NCBI GenBank assembly: GCA_964016885.1
Contig: OZ024740.1
Location: 219,418,001 to 219,482,000 of the forward strand
Reading direction: 5' to 3'
DNA from: Eledone cirrhosa
Lineage: Eukaryota
DNA length: 64,000 bases
Shown here: positions 3,058 to 58,033 of the stretch, piece after piece
Numbering within the stretch: the stretch's first letter is position 1
How the letters are laid out: every line of letters starts with the position of its first letter
The notes under the pieces: generated by a model
What the model was told of the DNA's origin: nothing
The model's database searches: none
What the model saw: only the letters and a program-made list of their open reading frames with translations
Program-made: the position numbers and the translations under genes

Positions 3058-3273
3058 ACAAAGGAAATGTGGTAAGGAACCAGGTGGACCATAACGCACC
3101 AAAGTACTCAATACTTAGGGTAGTAGAGTGGGTAATAGGAACAAGTAAGACCCCGACGGCTGAGCTCAAGCCGTTTCGACGGTGTTTGATTTATCAAGCA
3201 TAAATAAATAAAACACCAGTCGAGAATTAGCCGTCGAAACGGCTTGAGCTCAGCCGTCGGGGTCTTACTTGTT

Positions 3274-3278
<5 letters not shown>
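3058..3278 (-). mobile_element. TA-flanked repeat with terminal inversion (arms ~3135-3182/3231-3278); second copy at 4232-4357 (+)
   Basis: ATAGGAACAAGTAAGACCCCGACGGCTGAGCTCAAGCCGTTTCGACGG and its exact reverse complement; shared end ..CTTTGTT(AT)n with the 4232-4357 copy. Confidence 0.65.
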
Positions 3279-4231: not shown

Positions 4232-4356
4232 ATCCGAATGGCCAGAGCTCAGCCGTTGGGGTCCTGACTCTTTTCCTATTACCCACTCTATTGACCTAAG
4301 TATTGAGTACTTTGGTGTGTTATGGTCCACCTGGTATCTTACCACACCCTCTTTGT

Positions 4357-8798: not shown

Positions 8799-11700
8799 TC
8801 ATCATCATCATCATCATCATCAACGTTTAACGTCCGTGTTCCACGCTTGCATGGGTTTGGACGGGGGTTTTCCCACTTGAGGCAAGAGTGATTGTCTTGC
8901 TCGCATAGGACTGTCTGGCAGGTTTTCTACAGTTGGATGCCCTTCCTAACACCAACCACATTTACAGTGTGGGTCTGGGAGGTTTTTACCGTGTTGCCTA
9001 CACGGCCACATTACAGCGTGGACTGTGTGTTTTTTTGTCGTGACACCTACACGATCTCATTTGTTTCGGCCTGGATGGTGTGGCACCAACATAACTTTAC
9101 ATAGAAGGGGGCGGTGTGGTGGGGGTGGTGGGACAGGGTGTGTTTTGTTAGAGATGCCTACTGACTGTAGTAGGTTTTACTTTGTATTTAGGTAAGGCGG
9201 GTCTTCTCTATTACTGAGTACCGCCAAAGGTCTCGGTCCAGTGACATTGTCTTGGTGAGGTGTAAGTGTGTGAGGTCGGAGTTTATCAGCTCGTCCCAGG
9301 TTTTTCTGGGTCTGCCTATTCCGTGGCTACCGTCTATCTTTATTACCCTGCACTTTGTTATACAGCTATCGTCCTTCATGCGCATCACGTGACCATACCA
9401 ACGTAGCCTTCTCTCTAGTAAACAACATCTGATCCCTCTTATTTCTAATTTTTTCCTTAGTTCGTTTATGCTTTGTCGTTCACGTATATTACTATTACAC
9501 ATCCAGCAGAGCATGCAAGCTTCGTTTCTCTCTAGTCTGCGTATATCCTCTGCACACAATGCCCAGGTCTCACTGCCATGCAACAATGCTGTTTGTATGC
9601 AGGCATCGTACAGCCTGCCTTTCATTTTTAGGGAGAACCCTTTAGCGGCTAATAGTGGTATAAGCTCGCTGAACTTTTTCCACCCAGTTCTGACTCTAGC
9701 TACTGTACTTTCAGAGCACCCTCCACCACTGCTGATTTTGTCACCCAGGTAACGGAAGCTGTCCACTATTTCTGTATAACCCTCTGCGCAGTTGAAAGAG
9801 CTAGTATTTTGTGGGCACTTGCTGCTACTTATTGCCCCAGAACACCGGCCACATGTAAAATCTATGTTCTTAGTTAGCTTACCTGTGATCCCACTACATC
9901 TTTTATGCACCCAAACTTTGCATTTGGGACACAATATGGAATTTCTACCTACGCCTTTCCTACACTCTGCGCATGGCCACTTCCCGGAGGGGACCGCTGC
10001 CTTATTTTCTTTCTTACAAACTAGAACTTTAGTCTTAGCCAGGTTAATTTTAAGGCCTTTTGATTCTAGGCCGTGCTTCCATGTTTGGAATTTCTTCTCT
10101 AGCTCGGCCATTGATTCAGCTATGAGCATTAGATCATCTGCATATAGGAGTTCCCATGGGCAGCCGGTCTTGAACTCCTCTGTTATAGCCTGAAGGGCAA
10201 TAATAAATAGTAGGGGGCTAAGAACAGAGCCCTGATGGACACCAACTTTTACGCTAAACTCTTCACTATATTCGTTGTTAATTCTAACCTTACTGACTGT
10301 TTCTTTATACATGGCTTGTATAGCTCTCACAAGCCATTCATCAACACCTAGTTTTCTAAGAGCCCACCAGATAATGGAACGGAGGACTCTGTCGAAGGCC
10401 TTCTCCAAGTCGACGAAAGCTAAGTATAGGGGTTTACTTTTAGCTAGGTACTTCTCCTGTAGTTGTCGTACAATGAAAATAGCGTCTGTGGTACTTTTTC
10501 CTGACACAAACCCGAACTGCATTTCATCTAGATCAATTCGCTCTCTGATTAGTTGCGCTATTACTTTTTCCGTGACCTTCATGACCTGGTCGATTAATTT
10601 AATGCCTCTATAGTTACTCCTATCTAGGGCATCTCCTTTACCCTTATAACAGTTAACGATAATGCTGCTACGCCAGTCCTTCGGAACAACCCCATTCTGT
10701 ATGACTTGGTTGACTATCCGGGTGACCATGGTGTGTCCCACCGTACCAGATGCCTTCAGCATCTCGGCAACTATTTCCGAAGGCCCAGCCGCCTTGCCTG
10801 TCTTCATATCTTTGATTGCCTTACTTATTATACTACCCTCAACTAACACTGCTGGTCCCTCTATTGGGTCAATGTGGGGGAGACTGTCTTTCTCCCATTT
10901 ATTCTCCTCATTTAGTAGCCTTTCATAGTGACACTTCCAAGCTACCTTCTTATCGGCGTCGGTGATGGCAAGTACGCCGTCATTATCGTTAAGTACACAC
11001 TTCTCCCCGACAATATCACTGTTTTCCTTGACACATTGCCTAGCAATCCTGAACACCTCACGTTTTTGGTCCTCACGTTGTAGAACATGCTTGAACTTTC
11101 TTTCCTCTGCTTCCCTTCTTGCGAAGTACACTTGTCTCCTAGCTTCCCTCCTGGCCACTTGATAGTCTTCTCTGCTTCCACCATCCCGCCATACTTTCCA
11201 AGCCTGCTTTTTGGCCTTAATTGACCCCTCCACCTTACTGTTCCACCACCATGTTACTCTCCTCCTGCCTACAGGCCTGCTCCAGCCACAGACTTCGTCT
11301 GCCGCCGTCAGCAGGTTTGCTTTCAGGAATTCCCACTGTTCCTCTACCTTGTACGTCTCTAATTGCTCTTCCTCACTGTCGAAAGCATCAAGTAATATGC
11401 TTTGGAATTTATTTTTGGCTGTGGAGTCCTTTAGCTTCCATATTTTTCTCCTGAGGATAGTCCTCTTCTGTTGTCTAGTACGTCTCGTCCTGACTATTAG
11501 GTCGCTAATTATCAGTCTATGTTGGGAAGTGCATTCTTCATGGGGGAGGGATTTAGTGTTTACGACAGTCACTTTGTCACGTCTTCTGGTAAGGATATAA
11601 TCTACCTGGCTAGTATGTTCCCCTGATCTGTAGGTGATCAAGTGATTGTCTCGTTTTTTGAAGTTAGTGTTGCAGATAGTTAGGTTATTTGCGTCGCAGA

Positions 11701-12420
11701 ATTCCAGGATTCTGGAGCCTTCCTCATTTCTAATACCAAACCCATAGCCTCCATGGATTTCGTCGTAGCTGTCACAATGTTGTCCAACGTGACCGTTTAG
11801 GTTGCCTGCAATAATTATATAGTCACTGTCGGTTATTTGGGAGGTGTGAGCATCAGTGTCTCATAGAATCTGTCTTTTATAGTGCTGGGCAGTCCGGATT
11901 GGGGTGCGTACGCGGATATTACTGTCACCATAGTTCTATTGAGGACAAGTCTTATTTTAATTATTCTGTCGTTCACTCTATTTACGTCTATTATCTTATC
12001 TGCCCACTTTTCTGCTACCATGATTCCTACTCCACCCAGCCCATTGTCGTTTCCCACCCAGAAAAGCTTATAGCATCGTTTTCTACCCAAAATGTATCTA
12101 GCAGATCCACCCCTCCACCTGGTCTCTTGAATACAACAAACATCGACCTCCTTACGTTCAAGCATTTCTACAACCTCGTTAGAGCGACCCTTTAAGGTGC
12201 CTACATTCAAGGTACCAAATCTGAAGTTTTGGATTCCGTTTGAGGGGTTGGAAAGGTGGGGAGCGGGGGGAGATGGGGTTATGTTAGCCATCCGCGGCCG
12301 AAACAAAGAGGCATGCTCGCATTCTCGTCCACGAGGTGTGATTGTCTTTAACTTTGGCATTGTCACTGAGCGTCCAGATTTTTCTCTCTTCAACTCTCCG
12401 GAACTCCGTAGTCCTTCCAT
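8799..12420 (-). mobile_element. Near full-length RTE-clade LINE, family A (5'UTR may extend further right)
   Basis: APE + RT coding region, ~390-bp 3'UTR, (GAT)n tail read as (CAT)n at 8800-8822; no TSD found. Confidence 0.93.
9188..12420 (-). pseudogene. RTE ORF: AP endonuclease, reverse transcriptase, Cys-rich insertion; one frameshift near 11850
   Basis: GTLNVGTL, CIQETRW, SAYAPQ, GNLNGH, SQVDYIL, SQHRL; RT motifs QFGF, FVDLEKAFD, GVHQGSVLSPLLF, LLYADD, FRYLG; RRLRWYGHVMR. Confidence 0.93.
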
Positions 12421-13189
12421 CCTACATATCGAAGGCGACCAGTTAAGCGATAGTATAGGCCTCTGGCTTATGATTGGTCCACGTAATAATAATGGTGGTG
12501 TGTGGGGACGGGAGGGAGGGGTGTTGAGTTGTTAGCGAGAAGGATAGGTTTAAGTGAGAACCCCGTATTAACGAACAAAAATACAAGATTTGTTTAGTAA
12601 AATACGCCAAAAACTTCCGTATTTTTACAAGCATGACAGAAATACAAGAGATTTGTTTTGGAAAATACATGGGGAATGGAAAGAGGATAGAAAAAATGCT
12701 ATTGGAAGGACTAAAAATGCTGTTGGAAGGACTATGGAGTTAGGCGTATGTTAGAAGAGGTAGAAAAATGAGTACATTACATTATAACCATGAATGAATG
12801 AAGTTCAGCCACAAGTTTGGCGAAAGTGAATTACTTTGTCTTATATATGTATATGGGTTGGGTAGAGAGAGAGAGAGAGGGGTGGTGCTGGTGCTTTGAC
12901 CGCATGTTGTAGAGTGTGGTGGAGAAGATATTAAGGAGCGGGAATTAAGAGTTTGAAATAATAACATATATTTAAAATATTGTTAAGAGTTTGAAGTAAC
13001 AAATATATTTAAAATATTTGTATATGAGAAGAGTAGGTTTTAGCGAGAAGGACTCATGTGATAAAAATATAATCTACCTGTGTATGTGTGTGTGTGTATG
13101 TAGGTATGTATATGTCTTTATGTATATGTATATACATACACATATATGTGTATTATATATATATGTGTGTATATACATATATATATGTC

Positions 13190-14642: not shown

Positions 14643-17468
14643 CATCATCATCATCATCATCATCATCATTTTACGTCCGCTTTTCCCTGCTTGCAAGGGT
14701 GGGACGGATCTTATTCAGCACAGCATCTCTCCACTCGTCACGGTCCTTTGTCATCGCCACCGTGAGCTTCAATGATCTGAGGTCTGTTCTCACCACCTTC
14801 GCCCATGTTTTTCGTGGTCTACCTCTACCACGTCTTCATTCAACTCGCATTTCCTGGCACTTCTTCACCCATCGGTCATCCTCCATGCGCATCACATGTC
14901 CATACCACCTCAGTCTCCTCTCCCGTACACTACATTCTATCTCTCTCAGACACAGTTTCTCTCTCAACACATTTATGCTGGGTCGTTCACGCACATTTAC
15001 ACTGCACATCCAACGGAGCATGCTTGCCTCATTTCTCTCCAGCCGTCACATATCCTCTGCAGTTGCTGCCCATGTCTCACTACCATGCAGCATCGCGCTC
15101 CTCACACAGGCATCATACAACCGGCCTTTCGTACGCAGGGAGAAACCCTTCTTTGTCAACAGAGGAAGCAGCTCCCTAAACTTCTTCCAACCCGTCCTTA
15201 TTCTAGATACTATGGCCTCGGAACACCCTCCTCCCATGCTAATCTGATCTCCTAGGTACCGGAAGCTATCCACCATTTCTATAGCGCCCTCCTGCATCTG
15301 AAAAATGTGTCTATCAATGCGACTTCTACTGTCTAATTTCCCTGTACATCTACTGCATACATATTTCTCCCTACCTGTTAGTTTGCCTGCTATCCCGCTA
15401 CATCTCTTGTGTACCCAGGATCTGCATTGTGTGCATTTTATAGAATTTATGCCAGTTCCTTTTCTGCATATCGAACATGGCCATTTCCCTGACGGAATCA
15501 GGGTTTTGTCCTCTTTTCTACCCATCAACACTTTTGTCTTAGCTAGATTCACTCTCAGTCCTCTTGCTTCCAACTGCTGTTTCCATAGCCAGAATTTATT
15601 CTCTAGCTCCTCTACTGATTCTGCTATAAGAACCAGATCGTCAGCATAGAGAAGTTCCCATGGACAGCCAGTCTTAAACTCCTCTGTTATGGCTTGGAGG
15701 ACTATAATGAACAAGAGCGGGCTGAGGACCGAACCCTGATGTACTCCTACTTGTATCTGGAATTCCTCACTAAACTCCATTCCTACCCTGACTTTACTGA
15801 GAGTACCTCTGTACAAAGTTTGCACTGTCCTCACAAGCCATTCCTCAACACCTAGCTTCCTTAGGGACCACCAGATGACAGATCGGGGTACCCTATCAAA
15901 GGCCTTCTCTAGGTTAACAAAGGCTAAGTATAGTGGCTTATTCTTCTCTAAGAACCTCTCTTGCAATTGTCTCACCAAGAAGAGGGCATCTGTTGTACTC
16001 TTCCCAGGCACAAAACCAAACTGCATCTCATCTAGTTTGACCCTTTCTCTAATTAGTTGTGCTAAAATCCTTTCTGCCACTTTCATAACCTGATCTATCA
16101 GTTTTATACTCCTATAATTGCTCCTCTCCAGAGCATCCCCTTTACCTTTGTAGCAATTTATGAGAATACTGCTGCACCAGTCTTTGGTATGACATCACCA
16201 TATATAGCCTGATTGATGATGCGTGCAACCAGTTTAGTGCCTACCTCCCCTGATGCATTTTTCATTTCCCTAATCGCCTCTTGGACCCTATATTCGTCAA
16301 TCTCAATAGCTGGTCCCTCTGTCGGATCTACCAAGGGTAATTTCTCACTCTCCCATTTGTTCTCCACATTCATCAGTCTCTCATAATGACATTTCCAGGC
16401 CTCCTTTTGCTGATCATTCGTGACACTAAGTTCACCGGCATCATCCCGGACACATTTATCTCCAACAACATCCTGATTTGCATTGACACACTGCCTTGCA
16501 ATGTGGAACACCGCACGCCTTGGCAAACCTCCTACTCTCTGCCTCCCTGCGTGCTAAGTACACCTGACGTCTAGCTTCTCTCTTAGTGGCTGTATATTCT
16601 TCCCTACTCCCACCCTTTTTCCAAGCCTTCCATGCTAGTCTTTTGTCTCTAATAGCCTTATCTACTGTGCTGTTCCACCACCAGGTCACTCTCTGTCTGG
16701 TTGGAGCTCTGCTCCAGCCCCAAGTTTCATCAGTAGTCTGCAGCAAGTTGTCACGTAAGAAATTCCAGTTATTATCTATGTCATACGTCTCTAAATCGTC
16801 TTCTTTTTCGTCATATACATCTTGAAGGGCTTTCCTAAATTTGTATTTTAGTGAAAGGTCTTTTAGCTTCCAGACCTTTCTTCTCCACACCTTCCTATAT
16901 GTCTCATTCCATCTCTTGCTTACTGAGATATCACTAACAACTAACTTATGCTGTGGGGTACATTCTTCCCCAGGGTATGCTTTGGTATTAGACACTATCT
17001 GCCTGTCCCTCTGCCTAACTAGTAAGAAGTCAATCTGGCTTATGTGCTCACCAGATTTGTAGGTTATTAGGTGATTGGCAGGTTTCTGGAAGTTTGTGTT
17101 GCAAATAGTCAATGTACCTGCATCACAAAATTCAAGAAGTCTCACTCCTCCTTCATTTCTTGAACCGTAACCGTGCCCACCATGTACCCCAGTGTAACCA
17201 TCCTGGAGCTGTCCAACATGACCATTGAAGTCTCCTGCTAGCATAACGATGTCTCCGTCCTCTGTCATTGCGGTTGTTTGCAAAAGTTGCTCATAAAAGC
17301 AGTCTTTCTCATCTTTGCCTAGGCCTGCTTGGGGAGCATAGGCCGAGATGATTGTCAGTAGTCTCCTACCTACAACTAATCTAAGCTTAATTATTCGATT
17401 ACTAACTCGAACTACCTCTATTGTCTTATTGATCCATTTCTCAGCCAGGAAAATGCCTACTCCCCCTA

Positions 17469-17469
<1 letters not shown>
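14643..17469 (-). mobile_element. RTE LINE family B, 5'-truncated within APE, with several disablements
   Basis: ORF pieces 16456..17502, 16158..16526, 15046..16086, 14836..15021 with SAYAPQ, GDFNGH, QFGF, LLYADD, RRLRWYGH; short 3'UTR and (GAT)n; 5' junction into (TA)n/(CA)n. Confidence 0.92.
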
Positions 17470-17518
<49 letters not shown>

Positions 17519-17520
<2 letters not shown>

Positions 17521-18072
17521 TGTTATACTTTGGGAGGGTCATGTTGCCAATAAGAAACACACACACCAGTTGCTTTCACTTCAATTTATTATAAATTAAA
17601 TTTATAAATTTAGGAATTTATAAATTTCCGGTTGGTTGGTTGGTTCCACAAACAGATGATTGTTCATATATTGTCAAAGTTCTTTCGTCACACATTCTGT
17701 GACCTCTTCAGTGACTGAGGATTCTTTTCTTTGCTTTTGTGCCTCTCCTTTGTTCTGTCCTACGCCATCTTGTTTTTGTGCGTGTTGTGTGCTTAGTTTG
17801 CGCATGTGTTACATCCGGGTATCTGTGTGTGTAGAGGCACAAAAGGAGAGGCACAAAAACAAAGAAAAGAATTCCCAGTCACTGAAGAGGTCACAGAATG
17901 TGTGACGAAAGAACTTTGACAATATATGAACAATCATCTGGTTGTGGAACCAACCAACCGGAAATTTATAAATTCCTAAATTTATAAATTTAATTTATAA
18001 TAAATTGAAGTGAAAGCAACTGGTGCGTGTGTTTCTTATTGGCAACATGACCCTCCCAAAGTATAACAATAT
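17519..18072. mobile_element. Inverted pair of Penelope-like pLTRs (arms ~17519-17763/17831-18070), each with a hammerhead
   Basis: ~240-bp inverted repeat; terminus ATGACCCTCCCAAAGTATAAC shared with the GIY-YIG element end at 31603. Confidence 0.8.
17878..17920 (+). ncRNA. Minimal type I hammerhead (mirror copy at 17673-17715, minus)
   Basis: GUCA-CUGAAGA-G-GUCAC-AGAAUGU-GUGAC-GAAA-G-AA-CUU-UGAC; stem I GUCA/UGAC. Confidence 0.78.
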
Positions 18073-18126
18073 CGGTTTCAACACACGTTTTCAGATAAAG
18101 AATCTTGCTAAACAAATTCAGAAACG

Positions 18127-18182
<56 letters not shown>

Positions 18183-21256: not shown

Positions 21257-22233
21257 AAGTTTTCCTATCCAGATGTTATAGCCAGAAACTAAGTTTTCCT
21301 ATCCAGATGTTATAGCCAGAGACTAAGTTTTCCTATCCAGATGTCATAGCTAGAGACTAAGTTTTCCTGTCCATATGTTATAGCCAGAGACTAAGTTTTC
21401 CTATCCAGATGTCATAGCTAGAGACTAAGTTTTCCTGTCCATATGTTATAGCCAGAGACTAAGTTTTCCTGTCCATATGTTATAGCCAGAGACTAAGTTT
21501 TCCTATCCAGATGTTATAGCTAGAGACTAAGTTTTCCTGTCCATATGTTATAGCCAGAGACTAAGTTTTCCTGTCCATATGTTATAGCCAGAGACTAAGT
21601 TTTCCTGTCCATATGTTATAGCCAGAGACTAAGTTTTCCTATCCAGATGTTATAGCTAGAGACTAAGTTTTCCTATCCAGATGTCATAGCTAGAGACTAA
21701 GTTTTCCTGTCCAGATGTTATAGCCAGAGACTAAGTTTTCCTATCCAGATGTTATAGCTAGAGACTAAGTTTTCCTATCCAGATGTTATAGCCAGAGACT
21801 AAGTTTTCCTGTCCAGATGTTATAGCCAGAGACTAAGTTTTCCTATCCAGATGTTATAGCTAGAGACTAAGTTTTCCTATCCAGATGTTATAGCCAGAGA
21901 CTAAGTTTTCCTGTCCAGATGTTATAGCCAGAGACTAAGTTTTCCTATCCAGATGTTAGAACCAGACTAAGTTTTCCTGTCCAGATGTTATAGCCAGAGA
22001 CTAAGTTTTCCTATGCAGATGTTATAACCAGACTAAGTTTTCCTATCCAGATGTTATAGCTAGAGACTAAGTTTCCCTATCCAGATGTTATAGCTAGAGA
22101 CTAAGTTTTCCTATCCAGATGTTATAACCAGAGACTAAGTTTTCCTATCCAGATGTTATAACCAGACTAAGTTTTCCTATCCAGATGTTATAGCTAGAGA
22201 CTAAGTTTTCCTATCCAGATGTTATAACCAGAC
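21257..22233. repeat. 34-bp minisatellite, ~29 copies
   Basis: Unit AAGTTTTCCTATCCAGATGTTATAGCCAGAGACT; some 32-bp variants toward the right end. Confidence 0.97.
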
Positions 22234-28830: not shown

Positions 28831-30014
28831 ATAGTCAAGTTGGACAAACCTACTAACAAACTTAGGCAGGCACAGGAACTTCTTCAGGATTCTCAACAGT
28901 GCATTTCTCTTCATTCTATGAAAAGCTTTTAGTAGCTTAACAAATACCTGATAAAGGGAGAAGTCCTTGCTCTATGAACTTTTCTTGCAGTAACTCATGG
29001 TGGAGTCATGGGGGTGCTGTACATACATATGGCGTTTCTTGTGCATTTTTTAAACCTGATGGTGCCCATCCCTTCTTCAGGTTTGAACACAGCTGATTTC
29101 TTTTAAAACAGGAGAAAGAATGATAGAAAAGAATTGAAAGGTACTTTTTTTTTATCAACCTCAAAAGGATGAAAGGCAAAGTCGACCTTGGTAGGATTTG
29201 AATTCAAAGAGCAAGAGAGCCAGTACAAATACTGATAAGCATTCTATCAGTAACTATTGGGAAATATTTCCCAGACACTTACTAAATCAATTTCAGACAA
29301 ACATATGCTCCATTGTTGTCTTGGAGTCTCAATGTGGTTTTGAATAAGGTAGCAGAGCATGTTTTACTTGCACATTCCATTTTTGGCATGGTTTCTATAG
29401 TTGGATACCCTTCTATGGCTGGATGCTCTTCCTAACACAAAAGCTTCAAACTTCATAGAGTGTACTAGATATATTTTATCATATCATTAACACTTGAGAG
29501 GTTTTTAAGTTCCAAGCAGAGGTTAATGGTTCTTCATGATTGAATGTTTTCTCCATGTTCCCCAACCACTTTACAGGGTGTACTGCATGCACTTTATCAT
29601 GACACCTACATTTGTGAGGTTGACTTAAATCTTGTAAGACTATAAATGCTGAAAAATGGTTGGCATCAAGAAGAGCATCTAGTTGTATAAACCATGTAGG
29701 GATTCACCATATGACCTCACAGAATATGTCAACATATCAAACCATGAGAACATGGAAAACGGATATAAAACAGTAATGATGATGATGATGATATATATAT
29801 TTAAATAATGTTGAAAACCAAACAATGCATTAGGAAGAACATTAAATCGCCAAGATAACAAAAGAATCTTATCTTAGTAAATTTAATGATCCCAAATATT
29901 TTCAGGTTTAAAAATCCATTATCGATAATGGGTCTTTAAACTTTAAATTATTTAAATTTATGTTCCCTATTCAACAATGCTTCAAGCAAGCTACAAAACT
30001 CTGTTATAAATATA

Positions 30015-30522
30015 TATATATAAATGTATATATAGTCTATTTTGCAATACACTGTATGCTTAATTAAAAGCATTTTGAAGACCATATGCTATTGTTTTAA
30101 AGTAGCGACATTGTTGCTTACTTAAATTTTCGGCATACAGTGTATTGCAAAATACACTGTATATACATTCATATATATATCGCTATTTCAGAGCACCAAT
30201 TCTAATTTTCAATTTCTGCTGGGCCAGCGACCACTCTGTAAAATCAGTTCCTGATTGTTACTGGAATTCTATAAGAATCCAACACACATAATTTTCGACA
30301 GATGGGGAGAGTAGTGAGTTTTGATAAGTACCAAATAGTACGAAACAGCGCTGTCAACTTATCTCTCCCTGTCTGCCGAAAATTTAAGTAAGCGACAATG
30401 TCGCTACTTTAAAACAATAGCATATGGTCTTCAAAATGCTTTTAATTAAGCATACAGTGTATTGCAAAATACACTATATATGCATTCATATATAAATCCC
30501 TAATTCAGAGCACCAATTCTAA
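30015..30522 (+). mobile_element. Hammerhead-containing unit with 317-bp period, ~73-bp direct terminal redundancy and 5' inversion, in TA tract
   Basis: Direct repeat 30133-30205/30450-30522; inverted arms ~30015-30135/30374-30494. Confidence 0.75.
30316..30360 (+). ncRNA. Type I hammerhead with mutated core (UUGAUAA)
   Basis: GAGUU-UUGAUAA-GUAC-CAAAUA-GUAC-GAAA-CAGCGCU-GUC-AACUU; palindromic stem III ACAGCGCUGU; stem I extends via GGAGAG/CUCUCC and GACAG/CUGUC. Confidence 0.72.
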
Positions 30523-30802
30523 TATATATATATATATGAGTTCCATACTGTAAATGAGGTCAGTGTTAGGAAGGGCGTCCAGCTGTAAAATACCCAGCCA
30601 AATTTACAGTCCTCGCCGGAGCCAGGTGCGACATAGCCAACCCTGGCCAGACTTGCCTCCCAGCGTAGACAGGCCGTCTAATCCATGCAAGTGTGAAAAA
30701 ATGGACGTTAAGTGATGATGATGATGATGATTATGATGATATATATATACATACACACATGCACACGCATAAACATACACACACACATATATACATGATG
30801 AA

Positions 30803-31159
30803 GGCGCATGGCTTAGTGGTTAGAGCATTGGGCTTGCAATCGAAAGGTTGTGAGTTCAATTCTCAGAGCGAGTGATGTGTTGTTTCCTTGAGCAAGACAC
30901 TTTATTTCACATTGCTCCAGTTTACTCAGCTGTCGAAATGAGATGATAGGGACTGGGGTCCCTATCATTCCACTACAAAGTGGTCGTGGAAGTGCCACGG
31001 CAAAAAAGCACCCAGCCCAACTGTAAAGTGGACGTGGAGGCGCCACGGAAAAAAAGCACCCAGACTCACTGTAAATGAGGTTGGTGTTAGGAAGGGCATC
31101 CAGCCGTAGAAATCAAGCCAGAATCAGTTCCCGTCTCACCCTTGCAAGCAGGGAAAAGT
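30803..31159 (+). mobile_element. tRNA/CORE-like SINE head joined to RTE-type 3' tail
   Basis: A/B boxes and CCTTGAGCAAGACACTT domain, then RTE subrepeats and CCCTTGCAAGCAGGGAAAAGTGGACGTAAAA(TGA)n. Confidence 0.7.
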
Positions 31160-31459: not shown

Positions 31460-31797
31460 GATTTACTGCCCAATGCCAAGAGCTCAAATGCTGGGTAGTA
31501 ACTCTATTTTCTTAAGTATTGAATACTAGGCTGAACAATGGCCTTACTAGTCTACACTGGTAACTCCCACTATATTCACATATATATATATATATATATA
31601 TAGTTATACTTGGGGAGGGTCATATTGCTGTAATAATATTGCCAGAATTAATAACAGAACACACTCACTGTTTGGTTGGTTTTCACTTCTGTATCTTTTA
31701 TATCAGTTAATTCATTCGGTCCTCAATGTTTACCATTGACTGAGCAACGGTCAAAAATACAGATATAATATAGATATAAACACATATATATAGTCTA

Positions 31798-31837
31798 ACA
31801 AAGTTCTTTCGTTGCACATCTGCAACATCATCAGTGG
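31798..31837 (-). ncRNA. Minimal type I hammerhead in PLE pLTR
   Basis: CCA-CUGAUGA-U-GUUGCA-GAUG-UGCAAC-GAAA-GAACUU-UG; same GAAAGAACUU as the 17878 motif. Confidence 0.78.
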
Positions 31838-48244: not shown

Positions 48245-48413
48245 AGAGGTTCAGACGCCATGCTTTGCAGCATAGAGTTACAGTCCTTTACGGTCTGTAT
48301 TCAAATCCCGCTGAGGTTCACTTTGTCTTTTATTCTTACGGGGGTCGATAAAATAAAGTACCAGTAATACACTGGGATAATTACTGGCCTTGTGTCAAAA
48401 GTAGAAACAATTA
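48245..48413 (+). mobile_element. Deu/Nin-like tRNA SINE
   Basis: Core GGGGTCGATAAAATAAAGTACCAG and family tail. Confidence 0.82.
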
Positions 48414-48645
48414 TTGTTCGAGTGCTATGTATGATATTTTGCACTATCTGTTCTGGGTCTATGCTGTCTCAATTCAAATCCTGTTTCTTGTCACCAGAAA
48501 AAGGTTGACATGATAGAACTGGAGCCTCAGTCGTTAAAATAGCCCAGAAACCTCCTATGAAATGCTATTTCATAGAAGATTAGCTAAGCTTATAACTGGT
48601 GTGAGATGTAACAACAAACACACACACACACACACACACGCACGC

Positions 48646-48681
<36 letters not shown>

Positions 48682-48685
<4 letters not shown>

Positions 48686-48733
48686 TATTTCTGGCAATAT
48701 TATAACAATATGACCCTCCCCAAATATAACAAT
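48682..48733 (+). mobile_element. Extreme 3' stub of the 31603 PLE family
   Basis: TTCTGGCAATATTATAACAATATGACCCTCCCCAAATATAAC is the reverse complement of ~31603-31648; lies between (CA)n and (TA)n. Confidence 0.75.
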
Positions 48734-48967
48734 ATATATATATATACAAGTGAATGAATGAAGGCCAGTAACTCCTTCATTCACTTGTTTATACCTGCTC
48801 TGCTTGATCACTCTACTAAATATTAAATCCTCTCTAATATTTAACTCTGCTAATCCAAGCATTGAGCATATTTCACTTCGGCTATCGGTATTTAGTAATC
48901 TGTATCGCACCTCTCTGTATCCCCCTCTCTCCTCCTCTCCTACAATACATATATCCTATTATTATTA

Positions 48968-49622
48968 TCTGAGTTCAAATCCCGCCGAGGTTAACTTTGC
49001 CTTTCATCCTTACGGGGTCGATAAAATAAAGTACCAGTAATACACTGGGTAATTGCTGGCCTTGTGCCTAACGTAGAAACAATTATTATATATATATAAT
49101 GGACGGTGGATTGGCAGTATTGGTAGAGTGTCGGACGCCATGCTTTGACTTATAGAGTTACGGCCCTTGTCATTCTGAGTTCAAATCCCGCCGAGGTTGA
49201 CTTTGCCTTTCATCCTTACGGGGGTCGATAAAATAAAGTACCAGTAATGCACTGGGTAATTGCTGGCCTTGTGCCAAAAGTAGAAACAATTATTATTATA
49301 TATATAATTGTTTCTACTTTTGGCACAAGGGCAGCAATAATCCAGTGCATTACTGGTACTTTATTTTATCGACCCCCGATGAAAGGCAAAGTCAACCTCG
49401 GCAGGATTTGAACTCAGAATGACAAGGACCAATGGCGGTGGATTGGCAGTATCGGTAGAGGGTTGGACGCGATGCTTTGCAGCATAGTTACGTCCCTTTA
49501 CGGACTGAGTTCAAATCCCGCCGAGGTTAACTTTGTCTTTCATCCTTACGGGGTCGATAAAATAAGGTACCAGTAATGCACTGGGTAATTGCTGGCCTTG
49601 TGCCAAAAGTAAAAACAATTAT
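48968..49622. mobile_element. Cluster of four young Deu/Nin-like SINEs (+,+,-,+)
   Basis: Copies at ~48968-49088, 49100-49295, 49305-49430 (minus), 49433-49622. Confidence 0.88.
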
Positions 49623-52600
49623 TATTATATATATATATATATATATATGGCCTAGTTTCAGACCAATCATAATTACATAATGATTATGCAATGAAACTTC
49701 ATAGGAGATGGGGGCTCCTCAAATGAACATAAAGATTGTCTGTTAAAACTACTCTCATATATATATAATGTGTGTGTGTGTTTGTGTGCGTCTAATGGTA
49801 TAGTTTATATGAAGTATCGTAGTTAAGATTGTTTTGTGAAGCTGGTATAATGCAAATTGGAAATGCAAGCATCAAAACTAGGGTAAAGTAAGAAAAATAA
49901 AATAAGAAAATAGTTTAGAGCTGGGGTTAAGAGGTTGGGGGTTTAAACTGTTAATGTATATTAAATTATATTTCCAAAAATGAGGAACTGGTGTGAGGTT
50001 TTGACGATGAGCAGATATGCCTAAATAGATAGATAGATATGGTTAAATAAATAGATAGATAGGTCTAAATAGATAGATAGATAGGTAGATAGATAGATGT
50101 CTAAGTAGATAGATACATAACTTTCTTTTTATTTGCCACCAGGACATCAAAAAGTGGGACAAGTACAATGGGGGGAGTTTACATAAAAAAGGCGTCCTCA
50201 ATAAGGAGGAGGCAATAACAAGATATAAAAATAAAATAAAATATAAAAATAAATTTAATAACAAAATCCTCAATAGGGAAGAGGCGCCTTGGGGGTCGCA
50301 CACACCCTCGAAAAAAAGTGTGCAACCCTTCTCCTCAGGAGCACAGAGAGGGGGGTGCTCCCTTGATCTTTCATCTTCCTCACCTATAGTCTGATGTAGA
50401 GTGAAGGCCCATTCACACGGGCCATTATCGCCACTTTCACCCATCTTTCATAGAAACGGCTGGGGTGCAGCACCTCTCTCTCCATCCTGATCCTTCTTCC
50501 GAAATGATATCGGAAGAAACGGACCAGTTGTTGGCCAGAGAGAAAGGTGTCTGACCTCAGTCCTTTCAGACGCGTCCACCATAAACCACTTTCGCCATGG
50601 CTATTACGCACAGAAACACCGCCTCTTCTTCGTTTTTGAAGAGGGGAGGCGGCTTGATCATTACAATAGACTCGGTGGTCAACCGGATTGGTCCCACCCT
50701 TGACAGCAGTTGTTCGACATAGCCCCACAGATCGGCAATGCCCGAGCAGTGTACCAATGCGTGTGCAACGGTTTCCTCGTCGCACACGCATCTGGGACAG
50801 ATCTTTTTCGAGGGGTCCTTATCCAGGCGCCCGTGTCTGTAGAGCCTTTCTCGAACGGGCAGATCCCGTCGGTAGCACTGCCAGGCCAGGGACCTCTGGA
50901 AGTTATCCATGTGTCCCGGGCTGAATGTCCTACCGAACAGGTTGGCCAGTTCGTCTTTCTCCATGCCTAGGGCTTCTCCGAGGGCGTCGTCGCACCTGCT
51001 AACCACCAGTCCTCTATAGAATGATGAGGTGGATTCTCCACTGACAGCCGGGTCCGCCTGCCAGAGAGCCGTGAGCGCCTGGGCACACTCGGTGTGCCAG
51101 GCGCCCAGTTTTCTTGGTCTTTGCTTGACCCAGGATTGCAGCTCGGTGAGCGAGACGAGTCTGGGAAAAGCTCGCCTCACAAACGGGGTCCACACCGGTT
51201 GACCGGTGAGGAATACCTGGAGGTGCCGTAGCCTTAGTGCGTGTTTACGTATCATTAGCCACGGCATCCCCAGCCCTCCTTTCGAAGGGTGTTGACAGCA
51301 GATGGATCTCCTCACCATAGGAGCCCGCTTGTTCCAAAGGAATTGGAAGAGTGTGCGCTCCATTTTGGCGAGCGTTTCCCTTGGGCAAGGCACAACAGTC
51401 AGGTGGTAGTAGATAACGGACGCTATATAAGTGTTCGCCACCTCCGCCCGACCTTTCAGGGACAGTTTGCACTCGGCCCACTTCTGGGTCAGTGCAAACA
51501 CCCTGTTCGTCACCTCACCCCAGTTCTTCTCCACCTGGAGGTCTGGTCCGAACCAGAACCCGAGCAACTTCACCGGGCCTTCCGTCCAGCGCCCGATGAC
51601 GCCATCGGAGGGCATCGATCTGCCCCTCCACGTGCCGAGTTGCAGACCGATCGACTTGTCCCGGTTCAGCTTAGCCCCTGTAAACCTTTCGTACTCCTCC
51701 AGTAAGGTGCCGATCGCCCCGATTTCCGAGGCCGTCGACACCATTACTGTTACGTCATCGGCGTAGGCTGACACCGCTTTCCGCAATCCCGGTTCCAACG
51801 GGATGCCCTGCAACAACTCCTACTTCCGCAGCAGTGGCTCTAGAGTCATTACATACAGAAGAGAGGAGAGAGGGCACCCTTGTCGGATGGACCGCGTGAT
51901 TTTGAACAGCTCCGAGAGGTAGCCGTTCACCTTGACACTAAAGCAGATGCGGCTGCTGTGCATGGCATTGATCCAGCCCCTGAAAACGGGTCCAAAGCCT
52001 GCCGCCACTACACCGCATCCAGGTAACCATGGTCGACCCTATCGAACGCCTTAGATTGATCCAAGTTGATCAGGGCCCCACCAACGCCGGGTCGTTCCCA
52101 ACCCTCTCTATGATGTATCACATAAGGTGGAGGTTGTCGTGGATGGACCTGGACGGGATAGCGCATGTCTGCGCATCTCCCACCAGGTTGCCCACGACAA
52201 GCGCCAACCTCTTTGCTAGCACCTTGGCCAAAATCTGTAACTCTGTATTTAGCAGAGTTATGGGCCTGAAATTATTTATATCGTCCCCCTTGTTCTCGTC
52301 ATTCCTCACTAGCGTGACTACGCCCTTGGTCACAGCACAGGGAATTCTCCCGTTCTGTTGCCAGTTGCAGTAGACCGCCTCGAGGAGATCGGGGAACAAG
52401 TCCGGCATAGCTAGATATAGTTCGTATGGAAGACCATCGAGACCCGGGGATTTGCGTTTGCTGAATTGGCTCAGCACGTCCTCTATCTCAGCGGCTGAAA
52501 TCGGCTCCTCGCAGGACTTCACCTCCCTGTCCGAGAGACGCGGCAGGCCGTCGAGGTATGGACCGAAGTCCACTTCCCCAACCGGCTCCCCGCCCCTTCC

Positions 52601-53230
52601 GAACAATCTGGCAAAGTGCTTTTGAAAAGCCTCGCACATCTACTTAGGTTCAAGGATTACCCGTCCATCCTGGTCTCGCAAAGACCGGATAGTGGATCTA
52701 CTCCCTCTTTTGGCTTCTGTCACGCAGGCCCAGCTAACAGCTTTGGTCCCCTCGTTTCCCAGAGCACGTATTTTGCTTCGGACGATGCAGCCTTCGTGTT
52801 TTGCGTTGAAGAACTGGCCCAGGGCCGTTCTTGACGCTAGCACTCTGGCCACGTAGCCACTTCTAATTGCCTCTTCTACACTATCTACCAACTCCCTTTC
52901 CTTCCTATTTCTATTTGAGGCTAACTCCTTACTAAATTCTATAGAGACTACTCTAATCTCTCTTTTGAGAGATCCCACCACCTGCTGTTGACGATGGCGC
53001 CCGTCAACCGCTCCTTAACTAAAGTGCTAATCCAGTCCCTGTAAGCCTTACTTTCCGGTAAGGACAAGTTGAGCTTCCAGTAACCGGGTCCCTGTCTATG
53101 CGTTCTGTCAAGGTTGACCATGCAGGTCACTAACTTGTGGTCTGAATAGCCAACCATGCGCATTTTTGGACAACTTAAAAAGTCCTTATCCTTATTTCTA
53201 ACTAAGAACCTATCTAGGTACTACCTAGAT

Positions 53231-55711
53231 CAGTGGTTCTTAACCAGGGGTGCTCGCACCCCCTAGGGGTGCGAGAATGCTTCCTAGGGGGTGCGAGGAT
53301 ATCCTGGGGTAAATTTACAATTTTTCGGGAATAATGGTCGGGTAACCGAAAAAAGTGAAAAATTCTGGAAATCAAGAAGTCATTGTGCTAATTGGCATTA
53401 GGGATAATTTATAAAATTATTTTGCATTTTTTTCATTAAATTTGTCATAAACATGGCCAGAGAGTCCATTTCATTGAAAATTATTGGGGGCGAAGGTCAT
53501 TTTCGCCACACCTGAAATGATCTCGCCCCCCGGATGTGCGCCTCTGGTATAGACATGTATCACAGACATGCACACTATGCTTTTATTGTAACTTCAATTT
53601 TGCTCATAAAAATTATTGTTTTCCAGGTTTATCATCAGTATGTCCAAAAAACGAAGGTGGAATGATGACTATGTTCAGTATGGCTTCACGTGTGTTACTG
53701 ATGAGAAGGATGGTACACAACGTCCACAGTGTATCCTATGCAGCACCATGTTCTCCAACACAAATTTGAAGCCATCAAAGCTTGACGAACATTTTAAGAA
53801 CAGACATGGTGGCAAGGATGCAGAGAATGATCTTGCAACATTACGAGTCAAAAGAGCTAGGTTTGATCGTGCCGGCACTTTGCTGACACACGGATTTATA
53901 CCAACAGTGAAACCTTTATTACATGCTTCTTATCAAGTTGCATACCTGGTTGCTAAGTCAAAGAAGCCCCATACGATTCCCGAGGAATTGATCAAGCCAT
54001 GTGCCCTTGAAATGGCAAAGACTGTTCTCGGTCAGGAAGCTGCGAGGAAACTGCAACAAGTGTCTTTATCAAATGATATGATCCGTAACCGAATCATCGA
54101 CATGAGTGATGAAATCCTGGAGCAAGTTATTGCAGACATCAAGGCCAGTCCAGTAAAGATTAGCCTACAAGTGGATGAGTCAACAGATGTGTCAAATTGT
54201 TGTCAGCTATTGGTATTAGTCCGGTACGTGAAGAACAATAAAGTGGAAGAAAGTTTTCTTTTCTGTAACTCACTGAACACAACATCTAAAGCCATAGATG
54301 TGTTCAGTATGATAAAAGAATTCTTCACAAGATACCAACTTCATCTTGACAAGATTGGTTCCATATGTACTGATGGTGCACCAGCCATGCTAGGCAATCG
54401 TTCAGGGTTTGCTGCATTGATGAGAAAAGAAATTCCTGAACTGAAGATTACCCACTGCTTTCTTCATCGGCAGGCTCTTGCAGCAAAAACATTGCCCCCA
54501 TACCTGAAAAAGACTTTGGAGATTTGTGTGAAGATCGTGAATATGATTCGTGGTCGTGCTCTGAATCATCGACTGTTTCAGTTATTTTGTGAGGAAGTGG
54601 GTCAGGAACACACTGTGCTGTTGTATCATACCGAAGTGAGGTGGCTGTCACGTGGGTGTGTGCTATCTCGTATGTTTGAATTGCGAGAAGAAATTCAGCA
54701 GTTTCTCCACGGACTGGGACAAGAACTGGCTGGATATTTTGATGATCCTGAATTTATTCAAATGCTTGCCTATTTGGCTGATGTGTTCACAGCACTCAAT
54801 GAGCTCAATCGCTCACTACAATGAAGAGGGATGAACATTTTGATTGCAAGTGAGAAGTTGGCTACATTCAAAGACAAAATTGTTTTGTGGATTAGGCGTT
54901 TAAAGAAAGGGAACTTGGCAAATTTTCCTTCCCTTGAAGAAACAGTAACAGAGGATGCTTGCCTACATCAAGATTTTGTTTCAAAAATTATTGAACATCT
55001 GCAGATACTGTGCACCTCATTTGATGACTACTTCTCTTGTGGAGAGCTAAAACCCTGTGACGACTGGATCCGGCACCCTTTTAAGCATAATATGGAAGAT
55101 GTTGATGATGATAGCAACATCAAGGAAGATCTCATCGAACTCAGAAACAATCGTGGAATGCAAATGGAGTTTACCGATGGTCACTTGGAGCACTTCTGGG
55201 CTTCTCAGTTGGAAACGTATCCTGCACTGGCAAAGAAGGCTCTCACTGTGCTCACGCCTTTCGCGACTACTTACCTCTGCGAGACTGGATTTTCCTGTCT
55301 GCTTCACATCAAAACCAAGAGCCGAAATCGGCTGGATCCTCAACACAACATGCGAGTGGCACTCAGCACCAAGACACCAAGATTTGATGCCATCATAAAT
55401 GGAAAGCAACAGCAACAAAGTCACTGAATTTGGCGCTCAGCCATAATAATTCACAGCACACCATGCATAGTACAAGCACAATGTTATTTCGTTTTTTTAC
55501 TAGTATGAATGTAATCTTGATTTTTGTAATCCTGCAATGCATTATTTTGTTGTCAGTTATGTAAATAAAGAATTAAATACATGATTGTTTTGTTACTTAC
55601 ACATTATGATTATGATATCAATATTGCTTTTCATCAATTCTGGAAGGGGGTGCGAGAACTGGCTGGTGAATTGAATGGGGTGCGAACAAGTAAAAAGGTT
55701 AAGAACCACTG
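53231..55711 (+). mobile_element. Complete hAT (Buster/Charlie) DNA transposon, 2481 bp
   Basis: Perfect 15-bp TIR CAGTGGTTCTTAACC (53231-53245/55697-55711); perfect 8-bp TSD ACCTAGAT (53223-53230/55712-55719); GGGGTGCGA subterminal repeats at both ends. Confidence 0.97.
53640..55427 (+). pseudogene. Buster-type hAT transposase (ZBED5/SCAND3-like) with one in-frame TGA at 54822-54824
   Basis: BED finger PQCILC..KPSKLDEH; DESTD, CTDGAPAM, HCFLHRQAL, TEVRWLSRG, TTYLCETGFS; the two ORFs are in the same frame. Confidence 0.93.
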
Positions 55712-56602
55712 ACCTAGATGATCCGCTGCGGTTTGCCCAAGTCCAGGTTGGCGCAGTCGGAAAATCTAGTCGATATCTATCGGCCAGGTCAAATCGACCA
55801 ATTAACCCTTTGAGGCTATTACACCCCTCTCTATCGGTACAGGCCCCTACGTAGTCCCAACGTGCATCTAGGATACCATTCCAGTCCCCCACTAATAGCA
55901 AGGAGCGGGATGTCCCTAGAAAAGTCTCCAGACGATGGAAGAAGTCCGGCCGCATTGACCCGAAAGGGCCGTAGACAGCTACCAACCTAAACGCTCCGCC
56001 TTCATCACTGCCAAGGTCCAGAACCACTAGTCGACCCTCCGGGTCCAAATGTACCGTCTGTGTTGCGAGACCCAGATGTTTTTGCAGCAGAACGACAACC
56101 CCACCCCCACCTCCGGGCTGACAGAGAGATGCGTGCATCTCAAAGTCATCAAAGGTGGGGACCCGCTGTCGCATGTTGCTGATCCGGGCCTCGCAAATAA
56201 CCATCACATCTATACATTGTGACCTGAGGTCATTTAGAAGTATTGCTTGCTTCCAAGTTGAGCCCAGGCCACGCGCATTTAGACAGATAGATAGATAGAT
56301 GACTAAATAGATAGACAGATATCTAAATAGATAGATAGGTAGAGAGAACAATACATATGAATGTTGGGTTTGTATATATATCAACTACAACTTGATATAG
56401 AAGCTCCATTTTTGTGGTAGAATCACATTTATTATATATTAGAAATTCAAAGACAAAGAGACTATGGCAAAAAATCTAATGTCTAATAAAGGCTCCTGAT
56501 TGTGACAAGAAAGTAGTTTTGCTCAGATTAGACTTGACACCAACATGAAAGATAGACGTTAAATGATGATGATGATGATGATGATGATATATATATATAT
56601 AT

Positions 56603-56892
56603 GGTAAGTAAGTATGTTTTGAAACTGAGCAGGTTTGAATTTAGAAATTAGAATAGCTTTCACCGTATTTTTGACTAAAGGATTTTTAGCCTGATAATGG
56701 GGTTTAGAACCCTCAGATAAATGGAAAAAGATGAGTATTGACATACATGGGAGTTGAACCCACATCTTTGGTTATCGCCAAAGATGTGGGTTCGACTCCC
56801 ATGTACGTCAATACTCATCTTTTTCCATTTATCTGAGGGTTCTAAACCCCATTATCAGGCTAAAATTCCTTCAGTCAAAAATACAGTGAAAG
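56603..56892. mobile_element. TA-flanked fold-back element (115-bp arms 56657-56771/56778-56892) with tRNA T-arm
   Basis: Near-perfect inverted repeat; GTGGG-TTCGACT-CCCAT next to the hairpin centre. Confidence 0.7.
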
Positions 56893-56951
56893 ATATATAT
56901 ATATATTTGCATTCCTTTATTGTGCTACAATAAAACTCACCTCCTACATAT

Positions 56952-57926
56952 ATCATCATCATCATCGTTTAACGTCCATATTCCACGCTTGCATGGGTTT
57001 GGACGTGAGTTTTCCCACTTGAGGCAAGAGTGGTTGTCTTGCTTGCATAGGACTGTCTGGCGGGTTTTCTACGGCTGGATGCCCTTCCTAACACCAACCA
57101 CATTTACAGTGTGGAACTGGGAAGTTTTTACCGTGTTACCTACACGGCCACATTACAGCGTGGACTGTGTGTTTTTTTGTCGTGACACCTACACAACCTC
57201 ATTTGTTTCGGGCTGGATGTTGTGGTACCAACATAACTTTACATTGAAAGGGGTGGTGTGGATGGGGTGGGTAGTGGGACGGGGGTGTATTTTGTTAGAG
57301 GTGCCTACTGACTGTAGTAGGTTTTACTTTGTATTTAGGTAAGGCGGGTCTTCTCTATTACTGAGTACCGCCAAAGGTCTCGGTCCAGTGACATTGTCTC
57401 GGAGAGGTGTAAGTGTGTGAGGTCAGAATTTATCAAGTCGTCCCAGGTTTTTCTGGGTCTGCCTACTCCGTGGCTACCGTCTATTTTTATTGCTCTGCAC
57501 TTTTTTATACAGCTGTCGTCTTTCATGCGCATCACGTGACCATACCAATGTAGTCTTCTCTCGAGTAAACAACATCTGATCCCTCTTATTCCTAATTTTT
57601 CCCTTAGTTCGTTTATGCTTTGCCGTTCACGTATATTACTATTACACATCCAGCGGAGCATGCAAGCTTCGTTCCTCTCTAGTCTGCGTATATCCTCTGT
57701 ACACAATGCCCAGGTCTCACTGCCATGCAACATTGCTGTTCGTATGCAGGCATCATACAGCCTGCCTTTCATTTTTAGGGAGAACCCTTTAGCGGCTAAT
57801 AGTGGTATAAGCTCTCTGAACTTTTTCCATCCAGTTCTGACTCTAGCTACTGTACTTTCAGAGCACCCTCCACCACTGCTGATTTTGTCACCCAGGTAAC
57901 GGAAGCTGTCCACTATTTCTATAGAA
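56952..57926 (-). mobile_element. RTE family A 3' fragment, 5'-truncated into (TA)n
   Basis: ORF 57335..57967 is nearly identical to the C-terminus of 9188..11641; same 3'UTR and (GAT)n tail. Confidence 0.93.
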
Positions 57927-58033
57927 ATATATATATATATATATGTCAACAAGGAAAAAGGAAACACTGGAGAATACTACAATAAAAATGAGGATATAAA
58001 TATTAATTTAACATTTGATGTAGAAAATAAAAG

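Follow-up and report, generated by a model that had tools for sequence, protein, structure and literature searches.

The window analysed here is a stretch of 64,000 nucleotides of animal DNA, octopus-like to judge from its repeat families and rich in microsatellites, SINEs and LINE ORFs. It contains a 290-base element (56603-56892), a genuine and aged fold-back of the Penelope-like-element (PLE) type, in which an unexplained module resembling part of a tRNA stands at the place where three of four neighbouring fold-backs carry a ribozyme. We consider it very probable that PLE machinery made this insertion and probable, with somewhat less assurance, that the T-arm of the module is truly tRNA-derived. 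The explanation that we favour on balance is that the element is a 5′-truncated fold-back produced by a PLE endonuclease and reverse transcriptase (RT), and that the template was the terminal pLTR-plus-tail part of a hammerhead-less PLE-family transcript holding a tRNA-derived module. The features of the element and its borders are the following.

56587-56602, no strand: left (TA)n target tract, preceded by the (GAT)n tail that ends an unrelated SINE.
56603-56656, minus strand: 3′ "tail" of 54 nt by which the long arm outruns the short one; 50 nt of it lie past the TAT microhomology.
56603-56765, minus strand: ATG frame of 54 codons (163 nt), without a stop up to the very last base of the long arm.
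56657-56771, minus strand: paired part of the long arm, the presumed first-strand copy; the sense of the element is minus.
56763-56747, minus strand: mirror of the T-arm, with one CpG transition in its loop.
56772-56777, no strand: loop at the head-to-head junction, 6 nt, the presumed point of 5′ truncation and snap-back.
56778-56892, plus strand: short (inverted) arm, which stops where the long arm has TAT.
56786-56802, plus strand: intact copy of the tRNA-like T-arm/B-box, matched by the strict descriptor and perfect in the short arm.
56803-56824, plus strand: 8 nt in the position of an acceptor 3′ strand plus discriminator, a 9-nt trailer and T5, in a putative tRNA register.
56893-56906, no strand: right (TA)n target tract, (AT)7.

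Two arms of 115 nt flank a 6-nt loop, as the first-pass annotation had described. The arms stand head-to-head with five mismatches between them, and the loop reads TTATCG; counting in the TAT microhomology brings the arm length to 119 nt at 95% identity. The predicted fold has an energy of -123 kcal/mol (z -27.8), which none of 200 shuffles equalled. The longer arm, said earlier to run about 170 nt to a (TA)n junction, measures 169 nt in all and abuts (AT)8 with its terminus at 56603, while the short arm adjoins (AT)7 and ends, beside the TA target, at the point where the long arm reads TAT. Runs of TA account for 2049 of the 64,000 bases of the window, and the TSD of the element is unreadable amid the flanking TA. 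The orientation of the element was inferred from the T-arm and from the direction of the hammerheads in the control fold-backs presented below. No poly-A is found at the 3′ end, and the (GAT)n nearby is the tail of the unrelated SINE, on the opposite strand. The earlier statement that the element has neither kind of tail is upheld to that extent; it is not absolute, because three short TACT-like repeats occupy the extreme 3′ end of the long arm. These repeats, the T5 run, the open ATG frame and four similar fold-backs in the window are features that the first-pass annotation did not contain.

The arms are 96% identical, and their five differences, four of which are transitions, affect all three CpGs (Fisher p 0.0008). 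That every CpG differs between the arms indicates aged genomic DNA rather than an assembly artefact, and the pattern is methylation decay of a genuine insertion. The inverted structures of PLEs are known to trouble assemblers (PMC8557442), and an assembly artefact was an outcome that the first-pass annotation had itself set against its reading. The CpG-biased divergence speaks against a fold-back artefact of the assembly or of the library, as do the clean stops at TA tracts on both ends, and its probability appears negligible. If the O. vulgaris calibration holds, in which a JC distance of 0.09 corresponds to 25 My (PMC13282606), the two arms would have begun to diverge some 2-6 My ago, a crude figure derived from two to five differences.

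Self-comparison of the window for nearby inverted repeats returned 13 rows, six of which represent five TA-flanked asymmetric fold-backs, i.e., the element and four others (A, B, C and D, the last contributing two rows) that serve as internal controls. The seven remaining rows comprise four SINE pairs, one match of B to its second copy, one 60-nt palindrome and one simple repeat.

Control A, 1188-1472: hammerhead core intact on the minus strand and with one substitution on the plus strand; central minimal hammerhead; 99-nt tail; TA tracts.
Control B, 3058-3278: no full hammerhead core; GTCGAAAC motif; 77-nt tail.
Control C, 17517-18128: 231-nt arms, hammerhead, 56-nt tail.
Control D, about 29999-30521: complex fold-back with an internal duplication; hammerhead core at about 30321-30355.

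In all five fold-backs, an internal TAT/ATAT or TA-rich site marks the point where the short arm gives way to (TA)n, and the long arm continues as a tail, about 24 nt long in D, before reaching a (TA)n of its own. This short-arm/tail rule provides a usable annotation test. Three of the four controls hold hammerhead cores that read outward from the centre, with 0 (A), 0 (C) and 2 edits (D) under the flexible descriptor; a descriptor without offset misses the core of C, which the other searches find, and the U3-A8 hammerhead variant seen in D has been described (PMC4209133). A further hammerhead, related to that of C, lies at 31799-31836, and short pieces of the C family at 31598-31628 and 48706-48735 end at the same internal site as C. 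Control B, like the element, was inserted directly after a SINE that ends in (GAT)n-(AT)n; a second copy of B (4237-4346) is unfolded, 87% identical and stops at the same tail terminus, and the GTCGAAAC motif of B recurs close to the 3′ ends of Naiad_Obim and Naiad_Ovul (PMC8557442). A ATTCTAAT motif stands at or near the 3′ end site of three unrelated fold-backs (the element, 56645-56653, minus strand; A, 1462-1470; D, 30515-30523, approximate positions), where it is possibly an endonuclease or priming signal or possibly a product of chance.

The published anatomy of PLE insertions includes an inverted 5′-truncated copy, a one-sided tail of 30-40 nt and a preference for (TA)n (PMC8557442), and head-to-head palindromic PLE junctions have been read as the result of self-priming (PMC3846280). 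The element presents an inverted, 5′-truncated, head-to-head copy with a one-sided tail in a (TA)n target, its tail of 54 nt and three of the four control tails exceeding the published 30-40 nt. Hammerhead-less PLE clades exist (PMC8557442), and in the account of an anole PLE, the nicked sites are AT-rich, two RT start sites bound the tail and the hammerhead is dispensable (PMC11167929). Since the controls have the same geometry and the published anatomy matches, the element is taken to work like a PLE insertion. The earlier proposal of mobilisation by PLE machinery is thus well supported by four controls, three of them with hammerhead cores, and by the literature.

These observations suggest a model in which the insertion would have begun with an endonuclease nick in the (TA)n tract behind the older SINE tail. 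Reverse transcription would have started from the tail end at 56603 and covered about 175 nt before arresting immediately 5′ of the T-arm, whereupon the cDNA end may have snapped back via a small native hairpin and copied 115 nt of itself. Joining to the other TA end would have proceeded through the TAT microhomology, and the inserted copy would later have undergone methylation and CpG decay. Instead of a snap-back, a second priming event might have occurred at an internal start site on the other strand, which would be consistent with PMC11167929; the tight 6-nt junction favours snap-back.

A long inverted repeat within TA could also be produced in other ways. In one, a fold-back DNA transposon or MITE, characterised by long TIRs and a TA target, would have lost one end by deletion; in another, two independent insertions would lie side by side, as do two ordinary SINE copies at 49219-49378, which are inverted relative to each other with a TA tract between them. 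Both origins are very improbable. The termini of the element are asymmetric, with 54 unpaired nt on one side, and hence differ from the symmetric TIRs of a MITE; moreover, the asymmetry ends at the TAT microhomology and recurs in hammerhead-bearing controls. The SINE pair is arranged tail-to-tail with TA at its centre, whereas the element is head-to-head with no central target sequence. Equally slight is the probability of a LINE-mobilised SINE with a 5′ inversion by twin priming, in which the TACT repeats would serve as the tail. The three TACT-like units at the 3′ end and the abundance of LINE ORFs in the window would suit this origin. However, twin priming inverts a non-overlapping 5′ part, whereas the short arm of the element duplicates 115 nt of the long arm, and the element has no similarity to other sequence of the window, LINE ends included.

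The PLE-made fold-back that we favour is distinguished by its tRNA-like module. The first-pass annotation had pointed to a canonical T-arm/B-box beside the centre, and this holds: only two strict T-arms (5-bp stem, G-TTCRANY-C) occur in the 64 kb, both of them in the element, and when the long arm was shuffled with its dinucleotides preserved, 11 of 20,000 versions contained such a T-arm. The description of the element as tRNA-derived is therefore statistically supported for the stem-loop, but a whole tRNA, an A-box and an isotype cannot be shown. Neither ARAGORN at default settings nor Rfam at the gathering threshold finds a tRNA at the element, and the T-arm itself scores weakly in Rfam (tmRNA T-arm, E 0.12). 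Neither A-box nor isotype is readable because truncation removed everything upstream of the anticodon/variable-arm region. A phage search returned 219 records, the best 40 of which, at E 2-6, are often tRNA T-arms of Met, Ala, Leu, Asp and Ile; as these best 40 of 219 mix isotypes, they assign none. A plasmid search with the element gave nine records, every one at E 2 or worse, and the DNA pattern of the element had 0 matches in a prokaryotic genome collection. A cloverleaf at 56739-56811, called by relaxed ARAGORN, was rejected because the mirror supplies its 5′ half and 28 such calls are made across the window. Below-gathering Rfam matches to miRNA (E about 1e-9) and tRNA-Sec are accounted for by the hairpin, and such remnants could be misfiled as SINEs, MITEs or, as the former E-value illustrates, miRNA hairpins. 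The structure of the short arm as RNA is not unusual (z -0.54). Elsewhere in the window, a SINE head at 30805-30871 reaches 31.3 bits with the Rfam tRNA model, above its gathering threshold.

If the module functioned as a Pol III promoter, the element would be a short non-autonomous tRNA-headed unit that used PLE proteins in trans, a narrower version of the explanation that we favour. This possibility draws on the T-arm/B-box, which is flawless in the short arm and seldom arises by chance, on the PLE-type geometry, and on precedents such as non-autonomous Chlamys elements, retrozymes and the schistosome SINE-like repeats, the last apparently Pol III transcribed; in addition, cargo bounded by pLTRs, including host genes, is mobilised by PLE proteins in trans (PMC3846280). 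We nonetheless hold it to be doubtful. The A-box and the 5′ end are absent from the retained sequence, and a T5 run (56820-56824) lies 18 nt past the T-arm, at unit position 49 in both arms. As a general rule, a T run ends a Pol III transcript; the T5 is thus a candidate terminator, and in both arms it would stop the transcript 123 nt before the presumed end of the element. A T5 this near the T-arm is not rare by chance (1551 of 20,000 shuffles). The order of T-arm, 8 nt, 9 nt and T5 is the ending of a tRNA gene, unlike a continuing SINE: of five ordinary SINE heads checked in the window, four lack any T4+ run, and in the fifth such a run does not appear before position 170. Cnidarian and echinoderm genomes include tRNA-headed repeats that contain a T run internally.

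Strict and flexible descriptor searches alike find no hammerhead in the element, and it lacks the tandem array of type I hammerhead units that is a feature of non-LTR retrozymes and Sm-alpha. One could nevertheless suppose an ordinary PLE pLTR remnant in which the stem-loop resembles a T-arm by chance and is possibly stem II of a decayed hammerhead. The stem-loop does lie at the ATG, where stem II would sit (PMC11167929), and its flanks differ from a hammerhead core by 4 edits on the short arm and by 5 on the long one, with 4 or fewer reached in 74 of 1,500 shuffles under the strict descriptor. Under the flexible descriptor, however, 276 of 600 shuffles are as good, and the real hammerheads of the window score 0-2; helix I is not visible in the six retained upstream bases, and the T-arm is far rarer by chance than such a core, at the frequency given above. 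A decayed hammerhead in the element is only marginally suggested, and we regard the ordinary-remnant reading, to which the element would revert if its T-arm were incidental, as decidedly improbable.

The ATG overlaps the start of the T-arm, with its mirror at 56784 (plus strand), 109 nt before the end of the short arm, and a frame open to the 3′ end occurs in 14 of 3,000 shuffles in what was a post hoc test. None of the controls has a significant open frame: the corresponding counts are 1122 (A), 970 (B) and 344 (C, where no stop interrupts the 82 nt from an ATG to the end of the tail) of 3,000 shuffles, and D has no such frame. The pLTR plus tail of canonical PLEs holds the first ORF codons (PMC3846280), and the ORF of the anole PLE begins at hammerhead stem II, with RT starting 111-118 nt in; the short arm of the element ends 109-113 nt after the ATG (PMC11167929 for the anole values). 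By analogy, the open frame appears to fit the terminus of a coding PLE, with an ORF start in the pLTR plus tail, and it argues against a Pol III passenger. No PLE ORF could be linked to the element, a truncated copy, and peptide searches found no homologue of the putative peptide: two phmmer matches are repeat-inflated unrelated proteins, and a prokaryotic peptide scan, in which 1 of 232 candidates passed, gave a 19-aa bacterial match that was taken as chance. Such a peptide without a homologue is weak evidence, because even the 890-aa LINE ORF of this host has a best match of only 53% identity, with no database relative above that value.

Searches with blastn and nhmmer detect no relative of the element elsewhere in the 64-kb window and hence none among its SINE copies, in agreement with the earlier claim that it is unrelated to the SINE families present. 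The ordinary SINE families recur, unlike the element, and this again counts against a Pol III passenger; a single copy in 64 kb shows no family-level pattern. A weak candidate at about 29865-29985 is the best of 573 windows compared with the long arm but does not stand out from the background (40.5 versus 38.5); this segment is AT-rich, includes a 60-nt palindrome and lies behind a (GAT)n-(AT)n tail. Among the other repeats, the family of the tail-to-tail SINE pair has more copies at 48283-49633, and a minisatellite with a 34-bp unit, about 29 copies and 92% matches occupies 21257-22232. LINE copies with endonuclease and RT are found at 9188-12531 and 15046-17538, and a 3′ fragment at 57335-57976. 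A DUF4371 (hAT-like) transposase ORF with one internal stop (53610-55427) is located between minus-strand LINE pieces (50566-56384), and a minus-strand LINE endonuclease ORF spans 55593-56384.

The original suggestion of a SINE-like passenger moved by PLE machinery is thereby retained for the mobilisation and for the tRNA-like stem-loop, and a single truncated copy, the T5 run and the ATG frame make its Pol III unit doubtful. As to the parent, we lean slightly towards a family that codes or once coded for protein, of which the element would be the terminus, in preference to a free-standing Pol III SINE, which seems to us unlikely. Tentatively, one may also envisage a PLE-dependent family in which a tRNA-derived module replaces the hammerhead, whether as a Pol III "PLE-SINE" or through tandem transcripts cut by host RNase P/Z at the tRNA-like fold. 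An RNase P/Z cut would fall at the usual ribozyme site, because the position of the T-arm coincides with the ATG, about 26 nt upstream of the putative discriminator. tRNA-headed SINEs are classically LINE-dependent; a tRNA-headed element using PLE enzymes would, if true, widen this rule and offer a compact substrate for mapping the cis needs of PLE proteins. The question bears on the role of the PLE hammerhead and on how hammerhead-less lineages define their RNA ends.

The closest known systems are the truncated insertions of EN+ PLEs (Penelope/Poseidon, Neptune, Hydra, Naiad), which share with the element the inverted 5′-truncated head-to-head copy and the one-sided tail (PMC8557442, PMC3846280, PMC11167929), together with the (TA)n target, the lack of a discernible TSD and a possible ORF start in the pLTR plus tail. 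The element differs from them in having no hammerhead, which the canonical clades possess, in the T-arm by its junction, in having no linked ORF and in a tail that is longer than the published range. With Naiad, it has in common the absence of a canonical hammerhead, the (TA)n preference and inverted truncated copies (PMC8557442). The first-pass annotation had proposed a comparison of the 3′ end with PLE pLTR termini; by eye, it matches none of Naiad_Obim, Naiad_Ovul and Naiad_Omin, three of the 54 Naiad consensi of PMC8557442, and a 14-nt AT-rich match to the Naiad_Omin end, seen by eye on the antisense strand, was taken as chance. The sense strand of the element is without a GTCGAAAC-type motif, and its arms retain the high identity given above, whereas cephalopod Naiads are described as long inactive (PMC8557442). 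The T-arm and common B-box 10-mers are absent from the supplement text of PMC8557442; this type of search does work on that text, within the limits set by its line breaks and incomplete rows.

Short PLE passengers provide a second comparison. Non-autonomous Chlamys elements, e.g., MRC1 (PMC8557442), short non-autonomous heliconiine butterfly Penelopes (PMC6685494), animal non-LTR retrozymes (PMC7761336; bioRxiv 10.64898/2026.07.22.740005) and the schistosome Sm-alpha/Sj-alpha SINE-like repeats, which bear a hammerhead and appear to be transcribed by Pol III (PMC6765202), are already in print, and hammerhead repeats, including the schistosome type, have been proposed to use PLE proteins (PMC7761336). 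The pairing of such a passenger with PLE machinery is consequently better described than the first-pass annotation had supposed. The element resembles these passengers in being short, apparently non-coding and moved by or derived from PLEs. Retrozymes, unlike the element, are tandem and hammerhead-bearing, and in the excerpts of these sources none of the passengers compared is described as tRNA-headed. A Pol III-type promoter in a short repeat, putative in the element, is shared with Sm-alpha/Sj-alpha, but those repeats are tandem with an active hammerhead, whereas the element is a single fold-back with a tail and without a hammerhead. A hammerhead-less tRNA-headed PLE passenger was not found described in the literature searched, which lay outside Repbase, Dfam and most subscription journals. 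Ordinary tRNA-derived SINEs of the window have the T-arm/B-box and the association with TA tracts in common with the element, which differs from them in its internal T5, its fold-back with tail, in showing no LINE-type tail and in the absence of sequence similarity. Altogether, PLE fold-back remnants are ordinary and non-autonomous PLE cargo is already known.
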